Shown here in pieces: positions 2,902-35,480 of a stretch of DNA of 37,059 nt. The stretch lies in IMG/VR virus record IMGVR_UViG_2657245588_000006; one strand, written 5' to 3'. Every line of letters starts with the position of its first letter. The first letter of the stretch is position 1. The notes under the pieces were generated by a model. That model had not been told where the DNA came from, ran no database searches, and saw only the letters and a program-made list of their open reading frames with translations. Source of the DNA: a virus. Its lineage: Duplodnaviria > Heunggongvirae > Uroviricota > Caudoviricetes. A program made the position numbers and the translations under genes.

Positions 2902-5459
2902 CGTCCACCTCCGGAGAACAGGCCACCATCACGCATCTGTGTCTGAATTTCATCACGGGCACCCTTGCGGGCCATGTCATACACCGCCTTCAGAGCAGCC
3001 GGACCTATCTGCCCGTTCGTGCCGTCGTTGTTAATCACCACATGGTTATTCTGCTCAAACGTCCCGGACGCCTGCGACCGGCTGTCTGCCATGCTGCCCG
3101 GTGTACCGACATAACCGCCGGTGGCATAGCCGCGCATCAGCCGGTAAAGATTCCCCACGCCAATCCGGCTGGTTGCCTCCTTCGTGAAGACAAATTCACC
3201 ACGGTGAACAATCCCCGCTGGCTCATATTTGCCGCCGGTTCCCGTAAATCCTCCGGTTGCAAAATGGAATTTCGCCGCAGCGGCCTGAATGGCTGTACCG
3301 CCTGACGCGGATGCGCCGCCACCAACAGCCCCGCCAATGGCGCTGCCGATACTCCCGACAATCCCCACCATTGCCTGCTTAAGCAGAATTTCTGTCATCA
3401 TGGACAGCACGGAACGGGTGAAGCTGCGCCAGTTCTGCTCACTGCCGGTCAGCATCGCCGCCATATTCTGTGCAATACCATCAAAGGTCTGCGTGGCTGC
3501 ACTTTTTACCTGCGACATACTGTCCGTGGCGCTCTCTTCCCACTCACTCCAGCCGGACTTCAGGCCTGCCATCCAGCTCCCGCGAAGCTGGTCTTCAGCC
3601 GCCCAGGTCTTTTTCTGCTCTGACATGACGTTATTCAGCGCCAGCGGATTATCGCCATACTGTTCCTTCAGGCGCTGTTCCGTGGCTTCCCGTTCTGCCT
3701 GCCGGTCAGTCAGCCCCCGGCTTTTCGCATCAATGGCGGCCCGTTTTGCCCGTTGCTGCTGTGCGAATTTATCCGCCTGCTGCGCCAGCGCGTTCAGGCG
3801 CTCCTGATACGTAACCTTGTCGCCAAGTGCAGCCAGCTGGCGTTTGTACTCCAGCGTCTCATCTTTATGCGCCAGCAGGGATTTCTCCTGTGCAGACAGC
3901 TGGCGACGTTGCGCCGCCTCCTCCAGTACCGCGAACTGACTCTCCGCCTTCCACAAATCCCGGCGCTGCTGGCTGATTTTCTCATTTGCTCCGGCATGCT
4001 TCTCCAGCGTCCGGAGTTCTGCCTGAAGCGTCAGCAGGGCAGCATGAGCACTGTCTTCCTGACGATCGCCCGCAGACACCTTCACGCCGGACTGTTTCGG
4101 CTTTTTCAGCGTCGCTTCATAATCCTTTTTCGCCGCCGCCATCAGCGTGTTGTAATCCGCCTGCAGGATTTTCCCGTCTTTCAGTGCCTTGTTCAGTTCT
4201 TCCTGACGGGCGGTATATTTCTCCAGCGGCGTCTGCAGGCGTTCATAAGCCTTCTGCGCCTCTTCGGTATATTTCAGCCGTGACGCTTCGGTATCGCTCT
4301 GCTGCTGCGCATTTTTGTCCTGTTGACTCTGCTGCTCAGCCTTCTTTCGGGCGGCTTCAAGCGCAAGACGGGCCTTTTCACGATCATCCCAGTAACGCGC
4401 CCGCGCTTCATCGTTAACAAAATAATCATCCTTGCGCAGATTCCAGATATCGTCCGCTTTCTTAAACGCGGCCTCTGCCTTAATCAGCATCTCCTGCGCG
4501 GTATCAGGACGACCAATATCCAGCACCGCATCCCACATGGATTTGAATGCCCGTGCTGTCCTGTCTGCCCAGGTTTCCAGCGTGCCCATGTTCTCTTTCA
4601 GGCGGCGGGTCTGGTCATCAAACCCTTTCGTTGCGGCCTCGTTCGCCGCCTGCAATGCCCCGGCTTCATCGCCGGAACGCTGCAACTGAGCAACATACGC
4701 AATCTGCTCCGCCGTCACGTTATGGAACTGGCGTGCCATCGCCGTCAGCCCCGACGTCGGGTCTGTGGTCAGCTTCCCGAAGGCTTCAGCGACCTTGTCC
4801 ACCTCCACGCCGGATGCAGAGGAGAAACGCGCCACACTCTGGCTGATGGACGCAATCTGAGCCTCACCGCTTACCCCCGCCTTAACCAGTGCGCTGAGTG
4901 ACTCGCTGGTCTGGTTAAACGTCAGCCCTGCCGCCTGCCCGGCTCTGGACAGGACCAGCATACGATCTGCCGTCAGTCCCGCCTGATTGCCGGAAAGGAC
5001 CAGCGTTTTGTTGAAATCGGACAGGGTTGAGTTGCCCTGATACCAGGCATACGCCAGCGCTCCGGTCGCCACCGCCAGCGAGGTAGCCCCCACCATCGGC
5101 AGGGTGATCGCACCGGCAAGCCCCCGGAACATGGGGATCATCCCGCCGAAGGAGTCCTTCACCTGACCCCCCTGTTGCAGCAGGATCAGCCACGGACTTT
5201 GCCCGCCTGCAAGCTGCGTGGCCACGTCGGTGAACTGTGCAGGCAGCATACGCATGGCGGCTTTATACTGCCCGACGGAAATCCCCGCTTTCTGTGCAGC
5301 CAGCGCCTGTCGGCTCAGCGACTGTTCAACGACTGCCGCTGTTTTTTTCGCATCAGTTTCCGTACCGGAAAAATGACGCCTGACTCTGGCCATCTGCTCG
5401 TCAAATCTGGCCGCATCCAGACTTAAATCAACGACCAGATCGCCTACCGGTTCAGCCAT
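2898..5459 (-). CDS. H: Tail tape measure protein H
   Basis: 853-aa ORF, identical in length to lambda gpH; coiled-coil rich with a Gly-rich C-terminal region. Confidence 0.92.
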   Translation of the reverse strand: MAEPVGDLVVDLSLDAARFDEQMARVRRHFSGTETDAKKTAAVVEQSLSRQALAAQKAGISVGQYKAAMRMLPAQFTDVATQLAGGQSPWLILLQQGGQVKDSFGGMIPMFRGLAGAITLPMVGATSLAVATGALAYAWYQGNSTLSDFNKTLVLSGNQAGLTADRMLVLSRAGQAAGLTFNQTSESLSALVKAGVSGEAQIASISQSVARFSSASGVEVDKVAEAFGKLTTDPTSGLTAMARQFHNVTAEQIAYVAQLQRSGDEAGALQAANEAATKGFDDQTRRLKENMGTLETWADRTARAFKSMWDAVLDIGRPDTAQEMLIKAEAAFKKADDIWNLRKDDYFVNDEARARYWDDREKARLALEAARKKAEQQSQQDKNAQQQSDTEASRLKYTEEAQKAYERLQTPLEKYTARQEELNKALKDGKILQADYNTLMAAAKKDYEATLKKPKQSGVKVSAGDRQEDSAHAALLTLQAELRTLEKHAGANEKISQQRRDLWKAESQFAVLEEAAQRRQLSAQEKSLLAHKDETLEYKRQLAALGDKVTYQERLNALAQQADKFAQQQRAKRAAIDAKSRGLTDRQAEREATEQRLKEQYGDNPLALNNVMSEQKKTWAAEDQLRGSWMAGLKSGWSEWEESATDSMSQVKSAATQTFDGIAQNMAAMLTGSEQNWRSFTRSVLSMMTEILLKQAMVGIVGSIGSAIGGAVGGGASASGGTAIQAAAAKFHFATGGFTGTGGKYEPAGIVHRGEFVFTKEATSRIGVGNLYRLMRGYATGGYVGTPGSMADSRSQASGTFEQNNHVVINNDGTNGQIGPAALKAVYDMARKGARDEIQTQMRDGGLFSGGGR

Positions 5460-10264: not shown

Positions 10265-10660
10265 TTACACTGGTGTGTTCAGCAAATCGTTAACGGCATC
10301 AGATGCCGGGTTACCTGCAGCCAGCGGTGCCGGTGCCCCCTGCATCAGACGATCCAGCGCAGTGTCACTGCGCGCCTGTGCACTCTGTGGTGCTGCGGCC
10401 AGAATGCGGCGGGCCGTTTCCACGGTCATACCGGGGGTTTCTGCCAGCACGCGTGCCTGTTCTTCGCGTCCGTGAGCCTCCTCACAGTTGAGGATCCCCA
10501 TAATGCGGCTGTTTTCTGCCGCAACCGCTGCGGTGATCTGCGCGTTCACGTCCGGCTGCGCCGCGCTGGCGTTTTCGCCCTCCGTCGCTGGCACCACGTC
10601 AGTAACGTCAGCCTGCGAAGCAGTGGCTGAAACAGTTGTTGATTGAGTCTCTTTGGTCAT
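10265..10660 (-). CDS. Nu3: Capsid scaffolding protein Nu3 (in-frame internal start within C)
   Basis: ATG at 10660 preceded by GGAGGGCGA; in frame with C; 131 aa starting MTKETQSTTVSATASQ. Confidence 0.7.
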   Translation of the reverse strand: MTKETQSTTVSATASQADVTDVVPATEGENASAAQPDVNAQITAAVAAENSRIMGILNCEEAHGREEQARVLAETPGMTVETARRILAAAPQSAQARSDTALDRLMQGAPAPLAAGNPASDAVNDLLNTPV

Positions 10661-11564
10661 TCGCCCTCCTGAGAGACGGGATTTACGTGCATCCAGTGCA
10701 TCACGCATGACGGTGATCGCATCGGTGCTGTTAACAAGTTCATCAGCCAGTCCGGCATCAATGGCCTCCTGACCGCTGTACACTGCAGCCTCGGTATCCA
10801 GCACAGCCTGCACGGACAGGCCGGTATATGCCGACACCTTCTGCGCAAACATCTGGCGGGTTGCGTCCATCCGGGACTGCAGTGTCTCCCGGACGTCATC
10901 CGGAAGATGGCTGTAGGGGTTGCCATCCACCTTATGGCTGCCGCTGTAAATCAGAGTGATTTCCACACCCTGTTTCTCCAGCGCAGCACCGTAATTACTG
11001 TGAGCCATCATGACGCCGATGGAGCCTGTCCGGGCGGTCTGCGTGACCAGACGCCGGGAGGCGGCACTGGCAAGCAGCTGACCTGCACTGCAGTTCATGT
11101 CGTTGGCCAGCGCCCATACCGGTTTTATGTCACGCACACGGGCGATGATGTCAGCGCAGTCAAATGCCCCCGCCACCATCCCGCCGGGCGTGTCCATATC
11201 GAGCAGAATGCCGTCCACCATCGGATCGCTGGCAGCCTGTTGCAGACGGGCGATAATGCCGTTGTAACCGGTCATCCCCGAGTACGGCTGCAGCGCCCGC
11301 GTCCGGCTGACCAGCGTGCCGGACACCGGCAGCACGGCGATGCCGTTCATGACCTGATAACTGCGGGCCTGTCGTGGTCCGTCATCATCACCGGATAATG
11401 CCAGCGTCGCGAGTGCCTCCTGGGCAGTCAGGCTGTCGCCGGACACCGCATCCATCAGGCGGCTGATCCCAAGCTGGCCTGCAAACGCACAAAAGAAAAC
11501 CCGCGCATAGGCGGGTTCAAGCATCAGCGGCTCATTAAAAGCCATGCTGGCAATATGCGGGAGA

Positions 11565-11584
<20 letters not shown>
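10265..11584 (-). CDS. C: Capsid assembly protease C
   Basis: GTG start at 11584 preceded by AGAGGAGGAGAAGA; 439 aa beginning (M)TAELRNLPHIASMAFNEPL; 20-nt overlap with the B 3' end, as in lambda. Confidence 0.88.
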
Positions 11585-15265
<3,681 letters not shown>

Positions 15266-16433: not shown

Positions 16434-16489
16434 AGCAATTTAGATAATCGTGCAGACTACGCCCCTCATATCACATGGAAGGTACTACA

Positions 16490-16900
16490 ATGGCTCAGGT
16501 TGCCATTTTTAAACAAATATTCGATAAAGTGCGAAATAATTTAAACTATCACTGGTTTTATTCTGAACTAAAACGTCACAATGTCTCACATTACATTTAC
16601 TATTTAGCCACAGAGAATATTCATCTTGTTCTTGAAAACGATAATACGGTTTTAATAAAAGGACAGGGTAAGGTTGTAAATGTAAGATTTTCAAAAAATA
16701 AATGCCTTATAGAAGCCACATTAAAAGGATTCAAATCAGGAGAGTTATCATTTTACGAATACAGGAAAAATCTTGCTACAGCAGGGGTTTTCAGATGGAT
16801 TACAAATATCCACGAAAACAAAAGGTATTACTATACCTTTGATAATTCATTACTCTTTACTGAGAACATTCAGAACACTACACAAATATTTCCGCACTAA
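16490..16900 (+). CDS. YbcV-like protein (DUF1398 family, tentative)
   Basis: Track ORF from 16475; second ATG at 16490 with an AAGG-type RBS gives 136 aa; cos-proximal position as in DLP12; family assignment from memory only. Confidence 0.4.
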
Positions 16901-17250: not shown

Positions 17251-17991
17251 TTATTTCGTAGGGAAAGATGTGATCACATCAACGATGGGCTGGATTGAAA
17301 ATCCAATACCAATTCCGGAGTTAGCATTCTGCGACATCATGTCCGAAACAATCTGTAGCGATCTACCAAACATGTCCGCCATTTGCCCGAAATTAACACC
17401 CATGATCTCAACACTTCCATGCTGACTTGCTGAAGAAAGATATTGTCGCAGTTGGGCTATTTCTTGGCTGAAAGCATCAGCCTGATCGCCCATTATATAT
17501 CTACGCTGGGTGACGATACCTACTAACTCTCCCGAATCTCGATCAATAATAGGTCCTCCTGAGTTCCCCCCATTAACCATTCCATCAAGCGTAAATCGGC
17601 CATGCTCCATCGGTGCTGAAATAATTGCCTCACTTGTTAGTAACAGAGGTATCCCATGCGGGTATCCTGCAAAAATTACTTTTCTGCCCCTGGATGGAGC
17701 AAACCCAGCAGATGGTTGAAGGACTGTTCTCCCGGCAGGAAGCTGTGATTGCAACCGCATAATCGCAAAGTCGTTGTCACCATCAATGTGCAATATTTGA
17801 GCTTCGATATGCTCATTAACTTCAGTTTGAAGGATGACATGATTAATTTGACGCAGGTTCTGCAAGTCACAGCAGGTGGCGACAACATGCAAATTGGTTA
17901 CGACCAGATCTTCTCGCATGAAGCTGAACCCACTACCACGAGAATCACCTGCAATGACCTGAAACGTTGCGTTGGCTAAAGTTTGATGCAT
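17251..17991 (-). CDS. Trypsin-like (S1/chymotrypsin fold) serine protease, no signal peptide
   Basis: 246-aa ORF with GGAG RBS; candidate catalytic His in VTNLHVV, Asp in GDNDFAIM, Ser in GGNSGGP; no N-terminal hydrophobic signal. Confidence 0.7.
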   Translation of the reverse strand: MHQTLANATFQVIAGDSRGSGFSFMREDLVVTNLHVVATCCDLQNLRQINHVILQTEVNEHIEAQILHIDGDNDFAIMRLQSQLPAGRTVLQPSAGFAPSRGRKVIFAGYPHGIPLLLTSEAIISAPMEHGRFTLDGMVNGGNSGGPIIDRDSGELVGIVTQRRYIMGDQADAFSQEIAQLRQYLSSASQHGSVEIMGVNFGQMADMFGRSLQIVSDMMSQNANSGIGIGFSIQPIVDVITSFPTK

Positions 17992-20291: not shown

Positions 20292-20618
20292 TTACTCCTT
20301 CGAGCTACCAAACTTGTTACCGATTACTCTCATTGCAGCCCCACGAATAGCATCGACCCCGATCAGCCCAACGCCGCCACCAATGGCAACAGAAAGAGAT
20401 TTAGGCCATCCGACATACTCAAGAGCGGATGCAAAAGTCAGCGTCAGAGCACCACAGAGCAAAATCTCGAGCGTTTTTCGTTTCCAGCCACCACCACCGC
20501 CAAAATAGGCAATGCGCAAGCCAGCCATAACGATCGACATAATCACTGCGCCCAGCGGTGTGTCTCCACGCCACCAGCTCTGGACCAACTCCAGCCAGGT
20601 ATTTGGGTTATGAGGCAT
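20292..20618 (-). CDS. S: Holin (not lambda-S-like in sequence)
   Basis: 108-aa ORF directly upstream of R with hydrophobic segments and a charged C-terminus; RBS GAGGTGAGAG. Confidence 0.75.
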   Translation of the reverse strand: MPHNPNTWLELVQSWWRGDTPLGAVIMSIVMAGLRIAYFGGGGGWKRKTLEILLCGALTLTFASALEYVGWPKSLSVAIGGGVGLIGVDAIRGAAMRVIGNKFGSSKE

Positions 20619-21072
20619 TTGTAGTTATCTCTCACCTCGCCGATACAGGAGGTGCAAATTGAGGGAGTACCACGAACCGCAAACCAGAAGCGGAAACGTA
20701 AAAGAAGCCGAGCCAATGGATAAGTGCTAGATAGACCAAGCCCAACGAATACCAAGGCCCAGAAATGACAAAACCCGCTCGACGGCAGGTTTAAGCTGTG
20801 TGGCGAAGTAACCACTCTTAACAGATTACACGATAAAATGCGGACCGCGTGAGGAAAACTATGGTTTTTTTGAAGCGAATGAGTAAAATCAACGCCACTT
20901 TGCACATAAGTTATCCACACTGTACGTTTGCAAAATCTCATTGCTCTCTTTGAGTTTTGTAAATGCGCTAATTTTTGGACTTTTTTTGCCGATAGAATCT
21001 AACCACTTGTGTGGTAAGTTCTGAATGAATGTTACCTCTTGGTTTGAAAATTCTTAACATAAGGACATCTGA

Positions 21073-22068
21073 ATGTTTGAGCAGCGTAAAGCCCTGTATG
21101 CGCAACTGGAACAAGCACGCAATTCAAAAGTATTATGCTATGTAACAGGTGATAGACCAAACCAAGAAGCTCAAATCAGCGCTGATGTATTCGATCTGTT
21201 CGTCAATCATCTTGATGTGATAGGTGATGTTCAAAAAATTAGCCTCGTGCTCTATACGCGAGGCGGCGACACTTTAACAGCATGGAGCCTTGTAAACCTG
21301 CTTCGTCAGTTTTGTAAAGAACTCGAAATCATAATCCCATCCAAATGCCATAGTTCTGGGACGATAATGTGCCTTGGCGCGAACAACTTGGTTATGACCA
21401 AGCAGGCAACCTTAGGGCCAATCGATCCAAGTGTGAATACACCACTTAACCCTTCGGCCATAATCAATGGGCAGCCACTTCAACTTCCAGTCAGTGTTGA
21501 AGAAATCAATGGCTATCTTGAAGTAGTTAAGCATGATTTGAGTATCAAAGATGATGCCTCACTTGCACAGATCCTCCTTGCATTAAGTGAAAAGGTTCAT
21601 CCCTTGGTACTTGGAAAAGTCTATCGAGCTAAAGCGCAGATTCAAATGCTCGCAAGAAAACTACTGTCTCACCAACTCACTGATAGTGAAAGCATTGAGA
21701 AAATTGTAAGTTTCCTTTGTAGTGATTCTGGTAGCCATGACTACACTATAAATAGGATTGAAGCGGTAAACGATTTAGGTCTTACGGTGGAAAAACCAGA
21801 TGAGCACCTTTACGGTCTGATCAAAGAAATTTATGAAGATTTCAAAACTGAGATGCATCTGGGTGAACCTTTTGACCCAAATGCTATCTTAGGAACAGTT
21901 AACCAGGCATCGTACGTATCTGTCAGAAGCATTTTAGAGGCTCCAGACACGTTTTCATATCAATTCCGCACTGAGGGGATGTTACAGCGTTTGCAAGTTC
22001 CAGGCGTCCCAGGTCAGTTCGGCATAAATCATAACCTTATCTCAGAGGGGTGGGCTCGACATGGATAA
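21073..22068 (+). CDS. ClpP/crotonase-fold serine protease, SDH (serine dehydrogenase proteinase)-family-like
   Basis: 331-aa ORF with AAGGA RBS; YTRGGDTLTAWSL and KCHSSGTIMCLGAN resemble the ClpP/SppA oxyanion and Ser-nucleophile regions; oriented opposite to the flanking Q and S genes. Confidence 0.6.
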   Translation: MFEQRKALYAQLEQARNSKVLCYVTGDRPNQEAQISADVFDLFVNHLDVIGDVQKISLVLYTRGGDTLTAWSLVNLLRQFCKELEIIIPSKCHSSGTIMCLGANNLVMTKQATLGPIDPSVNTPLNPSAIINGQPLQLPVSVEEINGYLEVVKHDLSIKDDASLAQILLALSEKVHPLVLGKVYRAKAQIQMLARKLLSHQLTDSESIEKIVSFLCSDSGSHDYTINRIEAVNDLGLTVEKPDEHLYGLIKEIYEDFKTEMHLGEPFDPNAILGTVNQASYVSVRSILEAPDTFSYQFRTEGMLQRLQVPGVPGQFGINHNLISEGWARHG

Positions 22069-22240
22069 CAAATCATCTACAGGTAACTTTGTAGTCTATA
22101 CTAACAGGCATACAACTACAGCTGCGCCTAAGCCAGCAAGCATTCCATCCACTGCTCAAAAAACAAGCAACAATGGCGTCAATGGCTACAGTAACTTTTT
22201 AAGTTGCACCACAGGTTCAGTCATAAAAAACAGTTTCTAA
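22061..22240 (+). CDS. Hypothetical small Ser/Thr-rich protein (59 aa), start overlaps the protease stop
   Basis: ATG at 22061 overlaps the protease TAA (ATGGATAA); my translation MDNKSSTGNFVVYTNRHTTTAAPKPASIPSTAQKTSNNGVNGYSNFLSCTTGSVIKNSF; stop 2 nt before the hairpin. Confidence 0.3.
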   Translation: MDNKSSTGNFVVYTNRHTTTAAPKPASIPSTAQKTSNNGVNGYSNFLSCTTGSVIKNSF

Positions 22241-22241
22241 A

Positions 22242-22268
22242 AACAACGGCTCTCTAAGAGCCGTTGTT
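22242..22268. terminator. Perfect 12-bp hairpin between Q and the protease cassette (bidirectional terminator candidate)
   Basis: AACAACGGCTCT cta AGAGCCGTTGTT; minus-strand side followed by TTTAGAAACTGTTTTTT; lies between the Q stop at 22273 and the small-ORF stop at 22240. Confidence 0.5.
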
Positions 22269-22272
22269 GTAT

Positions 22273-22635
22273 CTATTCACATTCTAAACGTATATCGAGC
22301 ATACTAAGGCAACCATCGATAAATCCCTCAGCCATCTGTATCTCAATGCGTATTAGTTTCTCATCCTTTTTACTAGCCTTGGCGAGCTTTCTTTTAGAGA
22401 TACCGTATAGGTAATGGGCAACAAGCAGCGAATGTTCGTCCGGCCTTTTTTGCTTTAGACGAGCAAGACAACCTTCAATAATTAATGCATCACTATCTGA
22501 ACAAGCCTGACGTGTTTTACTTGTATAGGGAAGAAGCCCTTTAAACCCAGCAGCTATAGGCGAATAATCTACTCCAGAACTATCACTCGCCGCCCATGCT
22601 CCCCAACGCTCCAGAACCATCTGAATATCACGCAT
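22273..22635 (-). CDS. Q: Late-gene antiterminator Q (QuuD / phage-82-type, not lambda-Q-type)
   Basis: ATG at 22635 with GGAG RBS gives 120 aa starting MRDIQMVLERWGAWAA, the start I recall for QuuD-type Q proteins. Confidence 0.8.
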   Translation of the reverse strand: MRDIQMVLERWGAWAASDSSGVDYSPIAAGFKGLLPYTSKTRQACSDSDALIIEGCLARLKQKRPDEHSLLVAHYLYGISKRKLAKASKKDEKLIRIEIQMAEGFIDGCLSMLDIRLECE

Positions 22636-22652
22636 CAACTTTCTCCACAAAA

Positions 22653-34478: not shown

Positions 34479-35435
34479 TTATTTACCCTTATTATACTCT
34501 TCAGTAATCTTATTCATGGATGATATATATTTATCCAGCCCACCATAGTTGGCTATCATTCGAAATGAATTACGGTACTCTGCCATTTTCACATCATGAT
34601 TAGTAATTCCACACCAGCCACAAACTTTATTTTCCATGTTTAAAGGCTCATAACATTTTTTACATTGCCTTGATGCAGGTATTATATTGCCATTAATAAA
34701 TTGGTGTGATTTGAGATTTTGAGATAAAAGAAATGGTGTAGTTGTTGTTTTTCCTATTACCATTTCGAAATATCTACATTTAGCCTTTTTAGCTAAAGAT
34801 TGAATTTTCTGCTTTAATAAATCATTTGATTTGTGCCCAACTATAACTCCAGTTATACAATTAATCGGTACCGGAAGGAGCATAAGATTGTCATTCAGTT
34901 TAGTAAGTGCTTTCTCATTAATTATTACGCGACGTTCCTGCTCATAACTCCAGCAAGTTTGTTTTGTCAAATATGCGGCTGTCATTATACAGGATTGTAG
35001 CCAGTAGATATAACGAGGTTTACAGATATGAAATGCTCTCGCCAGAATGTCTTCAATACCTGTATCTGGAGAATCTTTATATTCAACATCTGCTATTGAA
35101 CTATGATCCTGGAAGCCGATTTCATCCAAATACTTTTTAAACTTCTCCTCATTAATCTCTATTACAAAACCAGAAGAATTACCTGCATAATGTGCCCACA
35201 TAGGTGGTATCACAGGGCTTTTCGTAAAACAAGTTGCTGGTTGTTTTGTAACCATGCCAATCATTTCATTGTAAAATGCTAACTCATCAGAACCGCGATT
35301 AAAATCAATAGTAAGGAAAAACTCATAGGGATCATTATATTCATGTAAATGAGAGAATTTTATTCCTATATGTGTTTCATCCATCATCAATTTATCAATT
35401 ATATCCGCTCCCATAAACTTATACAAATTGGTCAT
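34479..35435 (-). CDS. DUF2971-like protein with C-terminal CxxC...CxxC zinc ribbon (function unknown; family assignment tentative)
   Basis: ATG at 35435 with AGGAG RBS gives 318 aa; N-terminal LYKFMGADIIDKLMMDETHIGIKFSHLHEYNDPYEF pattern; C-terminal CKKCYEPLNMENKVCGWCG; strongly AT-rich. Confidence 0.5.
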   Translation of the reverse strand: MTNLYKFMGADIIDKLMMDETHIGIKFSHLHEYNDPYEFFLTIDFNRGSDELAFYNEMIGMVTKQPATCFTKSPVIPPMWAHYAGNSSGFVIEINEEKFKKYLDEIGFQDHSSIADVEYKDSPDTGIEDILARAFHICKPRYIYWLQSCIMTAAYLTKQTCWSYEQERRVIINEKALTKLNDNLMLLPVPINCITGVIVGHKSNDLLKQKIQSLAKKAKCRYFEMVIGKTTTTPFLLSQNLKSHQFINGNIIPASRQCKKCYEPLNMENKVCGWCGITNHDVKMAEYRNSFRMIANYGGLDKYISSMNKITEEYNKGK

Positions 35436-35480
35436 ATACAACTCCTTTTTTATAAAATAACATTTTAAATCATATGATTA

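Follow-up and report, generated by a model that had tools for sequence, protein, structure and literature searches.

Switches built around proteases include CalpL-CalpT and the protease-gasdermin systems. A link to phage defence has been reported for two further protease-containing pairs, namely ietAS, a subtilisin-like toxin with an AAA antitoxin (PMC13069673), and RosmerTA, an ImmA-protease antitoxin with its toxin (PMC10440598). A survey of PanAT toxin-antitoxin systems listed proteases only as rare accessory third genes and described no protease-linked PanAT pair (PMC8832971). Here, we analysed a 37,059-nucleotide stretch of viral DNA (IMG/VR virus record IMGVR_UViG_2657245588_000006, referred to below as the window), whose source is an Escherichia coli lambdoid prophage. 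Between the antiterminator gene Q and the lysis genes, this prophage carries a two-gene cassette that encodes a 331-residue ClpP-fold serine protease of the SDH family and an overlapping 59-residue partner. We give roughly an even chance to the reading that these genes form an autonomous mobile module with its own promoter, working as a toxin-antitoxin-like protease switch and most likely serving the lysogen as an abortive-infection defence. The cassette resembles the four systems named above in being a small mobile operon and in the proposed use of proteolysis as the toxic or switching step. However, the protease of the window has a ClpP fold, while those of ietAS, RosmerTA and CalpL are of the subtilisin, zinc metalloprotease or Lon type, and its partner is a low-complexity protein of about 60 residues, where those systems use an ATPase, a helix-turn-helix protein or a pore-former.

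The early, late and lysis genes of the prophage lie on the minus strand. Between Q and the holin gene, the plus strand carries the protease open reading frame (ORF), then the 59-residue ORF and then a hairpin. The features of this region are as follows.

20292..20618, minus strand: lambda-family holin gene (PF05106, E = 5.7e-25), the first lysis gene 3' of the conserved block.
20770..20852, minus strand: conserved block, from alignment with SfIV, cdtI, Stx2a_1447 and phiP27; its core, 20770..20823, is almost invariant.
20854..21060, plus strand: AT-rich, cassette-specific upstream non-coding DNA (GC content 37-42%).
21061..21065, plus strand: Shine-Dalgarno sequence AAGGA, read from the sequence, 7 nucleotides 5' of the protease ATG.
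21073..22068, plus strand: gene for the SDH-type ClpP-fold serine protease, 331 residues (ORF; PF01972).
22045..22053, plus strand: GAGGGGTGG, codons for E325-G326-W327 of the protease and probable Shine-Dalgarno sequence of the partner gene, 7 nucleotides 5' of its ATG.
22061..22240, plus strand: gene for the 59-residue Ser/Thr/Asn-rich partner, overlapping the protease stop by 8 nucleotides.
22242..22268: perfect hairpin with a 12-base-pair stem and a 3-nucleotide loop, between the convergent partner gene and Q.
22273..22650, minus strand: antiterminator gene Q, convergent with the cassette (PF06530; distant match to the Q21 structures 6P18 and 6JNX).

The antisense protease gene, the overlapping 59-residue ORF, the AAGGA site and the hairpin had all been described in the first-pass annotation of the window, and each of them is present where it was placed. 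The extent given there, 20941..22270, holds for these elements but is slightly too narrow for the cassette-specific DNA; because the DNA in common with phage SfIV ends at 20853, we set the cassette to about 20854..22272. The GC content of the cassette is 37-45%, compared with 50-56% in its flanks. The AT-rich upstream region was likewise seen correctly, and a promoter of the cassette's own is presumed to lie there.

The 59-residue ORF is a genuine gene and is translationally coupled to the protease gene, whose stop codon is overlapped by the partner ATG (ATGGATAA). Ser, Thr and Asn together make up 44% of its product. For relatives of the protease, 80 genome loci and 76 viral loci were fetched, of which 144 were usable. 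Automatic calling placed a partner ORF at 138 of these 144 loci, with a median length of 68 residues and a start only a few nucleotides from the protease stop, mostly overlapping it. Of the six apparent exceptions, four do have a partner, read in a different frame or begun at a codon other than ATG, which brings the count to about 142 of 144 and bears out the earlier view of the small ORF as a component of the cassette. A hidden Markov model (HMM) of the partner, trained solely on loci whose protease is less than 90% identical, gave a single significant match among 698 stop-to-stop segments of the window, and this was the 59-residue ORF (E = 2.2e-5; next best 1.9). When set against relatives with about 98-99% protease identity, the small ORF differs synonymously at 10-14 codons and non-synonymously at 4-5; since synonymous differences exceed non-synonymous ones, its reading frame is under purifying selection. 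The idea of a chance ORF was rejected on the basis of the locus count, the HMM match and this codon pattern.

The partner diverges much faster than the protease, with about 26% identity where the proteases are 60-70% identical. What the partners have in common is a loose architecture consisting of an aromatic-xxY element, a T/S-S-A motif and a second S/T-S-A motif, to which most lineages add D-S-L-x-x-I-K/R-N. The partner contains no DNA-binding domain and no signal peptide. In one inspected record with an identical copy of the locus, the 59-residue gene is left out of the RefSeq (PGAP) annotation. Among the 138 loci, no other neighbouring gene is conserved, and the unit is therefore the protease-partner pair. 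This pair has the layout of a type II toxin-antitoxin system, that is, adjacent, co-oriented and coupled genes that are inherited together.

The 331-residue protein belongs, by its profile scores, to the broad SDH family while falling outside the canonical equivalog group. It scores 53.6 bits against Pfam PF01972 (SDH_protease), above the gathering score of 31.3, and 69 bits against NCBIfam NF047768 (SDH family Clp fold serine proteinase), below the equivalog cut-off of 250; both alignments are good only over residues ~52-127. RefSeq labels the identical gene 'SDH family Clp fold serine proteinase', and among viral protein families the protein is assigned to phrog_11747, a PHROG of unknown function. 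It has the ClpP/crotonase fold, with S94 at a helix N-terminus as with the ClpP nucleophile, and carries an extra C-terminal domain of helices and beta-strands. Its closest viral structural matches are the giant-virus SDH proteinases. A sequence search of the PDB returned chance matches only. Hydrophobic segments are absent from both the protease and the partner, and both proteins are therefore probably cytoplasmic. For the same reason, superinfection exclusion at the envelope, one of the functions first suggested for the cassette, is unlikely.

The active site was then considered on the basis of about 130 distinct homologues. Four residues are strictly invariant, namely S94 (129/129), D118 (129/129), H222 (128/128) and D223 (128/128), and the last two lie in the invariant motif S219-G-S-H-D-Y-T-I226. 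H176 is present in 126 of 128 homologues, and K110 in 126 of 129, with Asn in the other three. The Pfam description of PF01972 gives a catalytic triad whose residues follow one another along the sequence as Ser, Asp and His. S94, D118 and H222 (or H176) thus look like a candidate Ser/Asp/His triad rather than the Ser-Lys dyad that had been expected; the triad is preferred because the Asp and His residues are invariant while K110 is not, and because no match to Peptidase_S49 (PF01343) was found in Pfam at E ≤ 1. Counting from the nucleophile Ser, D118 lies at the spacing of the catalytic His of ClpP, a comparison of sequence spacing only.

In comparison with the described ClpP-fold families, the protease is closest to the SDH proteinases of archaea, bacteria and giant viruses (PF01972/NF047768, S49-related in MEROPS), with which it agrees in fold, in Pfam score and in the order of its conserved Ser, Asp and His residues along the sequence. 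To the description of that family, the subfamily of the window adds a length of about 330 residues, the C-terminal region, the invariant SGSHDYTI motif and an obligatory partner gene. With SppA and 1510-N/NfeD, which use the S49 Ser-Lys dyad, it has in common the fold and the position of the nucleophile Ser at a helix N-terminus, but it lacks an S49 match, is predicted to be cytoplasmic instead of membrane-associated, and conserves Asp and His while K110 is not strictly kept. As for ClpP itself (S14), there is no Pfam match to CLP_protease (PF00574), and the Ser-His-Asp order of ClpP is not that of the window protease.

Near the C-terminus of the protease, E325, G326 and W327 are nearly invariant among the homologues. 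The nine nucleotides encoding them, GAGGGGTGG, would double as protease codons and as the Shine-Dalgarno sequence of the partner. Because they lie at Shine-Dalgarno distance from the partner ATG, E-G-W may be conserved for two reasons at once, protein function and ribosome binding. At four other loci (L112, L046, L032 and L142), a stop or a frameshift breaks the protease frame, and the genes there are possible pseudogenes, which may mean that the module is sometimes costly.

A minority of the loci show how the partner can be extended. When it is longer than about 95 residues, a third co-oriented gene abuts it. By Pfam, this third gene is PemK/MazF at L125 (8e-24), L078 (5e-26) and L129 (8e-12) and Fic/Doc at L071 (2e-19), while the C-terminal partner extensions that precede MazF and Doc have no Pfam match. 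At L062, L068 and L074, the N-terminal module of the partner is instead fused to the SocA_Panacea antitoxin domain (E = 2e-20 in the L074 fusion; Panacea was found in three scanned neighbour proteins) after which comes an ORF of about 105 residues without a family match. The spirochaete loci L037 and L048 have a 96-residue ORF after the partner, also without a family match. In most of the three-gene loci (L125, L078, L129, L071, L062, L068, L074, L037 and L048), these variants lie at about 7.0-7.9 kb. Since the same module, always beside the same protease, joins either Panacea or extensions that precede a toxin, the simplest reading is that this module is the part recognised by the protease. 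The likeness to PanAT, MazEF and Phd-Doc is confined to the lineages with a Panacea fusion or with an extended partner next to MazF/PemK/Doc; the version in the window has no Panacea, MazF or Doc component.

The position of the cassette was compared with the same interval in related prophages. SfIV, cdtI and Stx2a_1447 carry antisense two-gene cassettes directly 3' of Q, and phiP27 has a co-oriented PD-Lambda-1 gene there (PADLOC, 2e-89). Six E. coli prophages were sampled as well, and their slots contain an antisense gene for a TIR-TM protein (E = 1.7e-57), a co-oriented gene for a NucC-like PD-(D/E)xK nuclease (E = 2e-30), an antisense PDC-S42 candidate (E = 8e-33), the same antisense pair of hypothetical genes in two of the six, and a 148-residue antisense hypothetical gene in one further case. 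Because related phages hold varied cargo at this site, several of them defence genes, the Q-proximal slot can be regarded as a cargo hotspot with defence content. We did not find this slot of the SfIV/phiP27-like lineage described as a hotspot in the literature. Antisense orientation, at first taken to be exceptional for cargo between Q and the lysis genes, occurs in seven of the nine comparators. In SfIV (L002), an IS1 transposase gene (3821..4324) stands in the slot beside the antisense cargo, an arrangement consistent with a slot that tolerates insertions.

Immediately beyond the cassette lies the conserved block at 20770..20852. Its core has the sequence TGTTAAGAGTGGTTACTTCGCCACACAGCTTAAACCyGCCGTCGAGCGGGTTTT, with a terminator-like hairpin (20792..20771) at the end. 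In all five phages compared, the block comes after the cargo, with the late genes next. For this Q family, the block probably represents the late-promoter leader and tR' region, and late transcription is predicted to begin near 20820-20830 on the minus strand; a consensus scan gave no late promoter on the minus strand, promoter hexamers were not convincingly identified, and no Rfam family covers the block. If the block is indeed the late-promoter leader, the cassette probably separates Q from the late promoter region, upstream of the latter and where the Q and cassette transcripts converge, and is not part of the late operon. A 132-residue ORF at 20543..20941 (minus strand) overlaps both this block and the start of the holin gene. 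It has an odd composition, is absent from the inspected RefSeq record and is probably no gene.

The distribution of the pair supports the proposal that the cassette is accessory cargo and no core gene. While the flanks of the window, including the conserved block, were matched in 830 of 5,426 complete E. coli genomes, the cassette itself is present in only 47 of them, and the related prophages carry other genes in its place. Beyond E. coli, the databases contain more than 4,100 relatives of the protease, with 393 clusters at 50% identity and E < 1e-30. The loci span Proteobacteria, Bacteroidota, Firmicutes, Spirochaetes, Chloroflexi, Patescibacteria and one archaeal metagenome-assembled genome, and across these phyla the proteases are 45-68% identical. 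A tblastn search of 50,697 deposited phage genomes returned no homologue, and 11 of 72,556 plasmid records matched, two of these being excised prophages.

The records NZ_CP081704.1 (L168; 43,680 base pairs, circular) and NZ_CP081794.1 were deposited as E. coli plasmids but are really an excised prophage with a dusA fragment. They carry the identical segment from Q through the cassette to the lysis genes on a different, myovirus-type structural backbone, so that this segment is mosaic between phage backbones. The L168 prophage may be active. It also encodes a type II restriction-modification pair, a GIY-YIG protein and an acyltransferase.

A second prophage setting was found in three viral contigs, where a pair with 66% protease identity sits exactly between the P2-type nickase gene gpA (phrog_91) and the portal gene gpQ (phrog_68). 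The P2 gpA-gpQ interval is a cos-proximal defence hotspot (Rousset et al. 2022, PMC9122126), and the lambdoid Q-proximal slot behaves likewise. No SDH protease is named in that paper or its supplements. Because the pair thus occupies two separate prophage hotspots whose other occupants include defence genes, a defence role, one of the functions first suggested, is plausible, and accessory cargo that is probably expressed in the lysogen is a reasonable reading.

Combined, we favour a lysogen-expressed protease switch acting by abortive infection. The prophage would express the pair from its own promoter, apart from lytic transcription. The partner module would be a cognate substrate, pseudo-substrate or degron that, at rest, keeps the protease occupied or in check. 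Depletion or cleavage of the partner would be triggered by a phage cue or by an arrest of host translation, and the freed protease would then cut essential host or phage proteins, whereby the infection is aborted. In the two-gene form, the protease is the likeliest effector and the partner its restraint, because the protease is the sole enzyme there. Where a third gene is present, the toxin would be freed once the fused antitoxin is lost, with the same outcome. The hairpin between Q and the cassette would insulate the convergent transcripts.

Several observations weigh against this proposal. The minimal two-gene form has no separate toxin, so that the protease can only be assumed to be the effector. 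In type II toxin-antitoxin pairs, the order with the enzyme first and the small protein second is the rarer one. The three-gene variants account for only about 10 of about 120 distinct loci. Chromosomal neighbourhoods are mixed, containing restriction-modification genes, DpdF, PsyrT, integrases and transposases but housekeeping genes too. A consensus promoter scan gave no plus-strand promoter 5' of the cassette. Neither protein matched any defence model of PADLOC-DB v2.0.0 at E ≤ 1. Finally, we found no published evidence that the pair is toxic, neutralising or protective against phages, and neither the pair nor any part played by an SDH protease in defence or in toxin-antitoxin systems was found in the literature, including the work on Panacea, NetFlax, the P2 hotspot, Tai and domain-centric discovery.

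Much of the evidence also bears on an addiction or stabilisation module, in which a toxin-antitoxin pair would penalise loss of the prophage or element without excluding other phages. The architecture fits this explanation equally well, given the coupled pair, the fast-evolving small partner and the links to MazF, Doc and Panacea, and the pair is found on mobile elements near integrases and transposases. Since the two prophage slots otherwise hold defence cargo and the pair is rare on plasmids, we consider addiction as the sole role unlikely; addiction and defence are, however, not mutually exclusive. It is also conceivable that the protease serves regulation or processing, acting on the small protein or another one, either in the life cycle of the element (induction or late-gene timing, compare ImmA/ImmR and CapP/CapH) or in peptide maturation. 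The short conserved motifs of the partner do resemble cleavage sites, the cassette adjoins the late-gene switch Q, and regulatory pairs of a protease and its substrate are known (ImmA, PMC10440598). Such a role is nevertheless quite unlikely in our estimate, as the pair also occurs in unrelated phage types at the non-regulatory gpA-gpQ position and in chromosomes and the archaeal metagenome-assembled genome with no neighbours in common, while the partner lacks a DNA-binding domain and a signal peptide and no modification enzymes lie nearby.

Two further explanations were considered. As a counter-defence or host-takeover enzyme, it would degrade host immune proteins or antitoxins, with the partner as chaperone or timer. 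The association with antitoxin-like domains would suit a protease aimed at toxin-antitoxin-based immunity, and the cassette does occur in temperate phages. On the other hand, it is antisense to the lytic genes and insulated from them by a terminator, many copies lie in non-phage chromosomal settings, no homologue was found in the 50,697 deposited phage genomes, and a toxin in the same operon of the three-gene variants fits a self-contained switch better; we therefore regard counter-defence as improbable. A role as a second head-maturation (prohead) protease or scaffold-processing enzyme is suggested by weak matches to NF045542 (28 bits) and to phrog_2976, phrog_1684 and phrog_133 (E = 0.003-0.009). 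All of these scores fall well short of their cut-offs, which in the case of NF045542 is 120 bits. In addition, the gene is on the opposite strand and outside the head module, between Q and the holin, and most of its homologues are not beside capsid genes. The phage also has its own prohead protease or scaffold protein, a 484-residue product of 10265..11719 (minus strand) that matches Pfam Peptidase_S49 with E = 1.7e-44. This prophage thus encodes two ClpP-fold proteases with different roles, and the head-protease explanation, to which we assign hardly any probability, is effectively refuted by position and scores.

More tentatively, the protease switch favoured here could represent a widespread and undescribed family, in which a dedicated SDH-type protease has a portable Ser/Thr-rich module, about 45 residues long, as its recognition target. 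This module could be joined to unrelated antitoxin-type regions to gate different toxins, and the two-gene form would be a stand-alone abortive-infection system in prophage hotspots across phyla. We regard this generalisation as possible rather than probable. If the proposal is correct, a ClpP-fold protease with an obligatory micro-protein would join the prophage-borne immune or toxin-antitoxin modules, and a large family now annotated only as SDH proteinase or as a PHROG of unknown function would gain a function. A small gene left out of the inspected RefSeq record would also come to light. The Panacea fusions and the MazF and Doc genes suggest a transferable protease-recognition tag, which could be of use in studies of antitoxin stability and as a tool. 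In SfIV/phiP27-like lambdoid phages, some Stx2 and Cdt phages among them, the Q-proximal slot would be a defence-cargo hotspot worth mining. New in this work are the real small partner gene, the extended and Panacea-fused variants, the occurrence of the pair in the P2 hotspot and the Q-proximal slot as a cargo hotspot.

Regarding the control of the cassette, inspection by eye gave a weak candidate promoter, with TTGGAC (20975-20980) and TCTAAC (20998-21003) separated by a 17-nucleotide spacer. A repeat search 5' of the cassette returned no convincing operator-like inverted repeat. At the other end, the hairpin at 22242..22268 has a predicted energy of -18.7 kcal/mol on the plus strand (z = -6.7 compared with shuffles) and of -19.1 kcal/mol on the minus strand, and it ends 4 nucleotides from the Q stop codon. 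Because the hairpin is strong and its U-tract is better on the minus strand (UUUUUAGAAACUGUUUUUU) than on the plus strand, it is predicted to be, and probably is, a bidirectional terminator between the two convergent transcripts. Rfam searches of the whole window at gathering thresholds and of 20600..22300 at permissive thresholds gave nothing meaningful, and a tRNA search of the DNA found none.

Besides the holin gene, the minus-strand lysis genes include those for lysozyme and Rz. Between the lysis and packaging genes, a further minus-strand gene (17251..17991) encodes a trypsin-like peptidase of 246 residues (Pfam Trypsin_2, E = 3.7e-20). This is the second non-structural protease of the prophage and may be an accessory or defence gene. 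Two other genes are possible morons, namely an antisense DUF1398 gene in the late region (16475..16900, plus strand) and a DUF2971 gene adjoining the integrase (34479..35441, minus strand).

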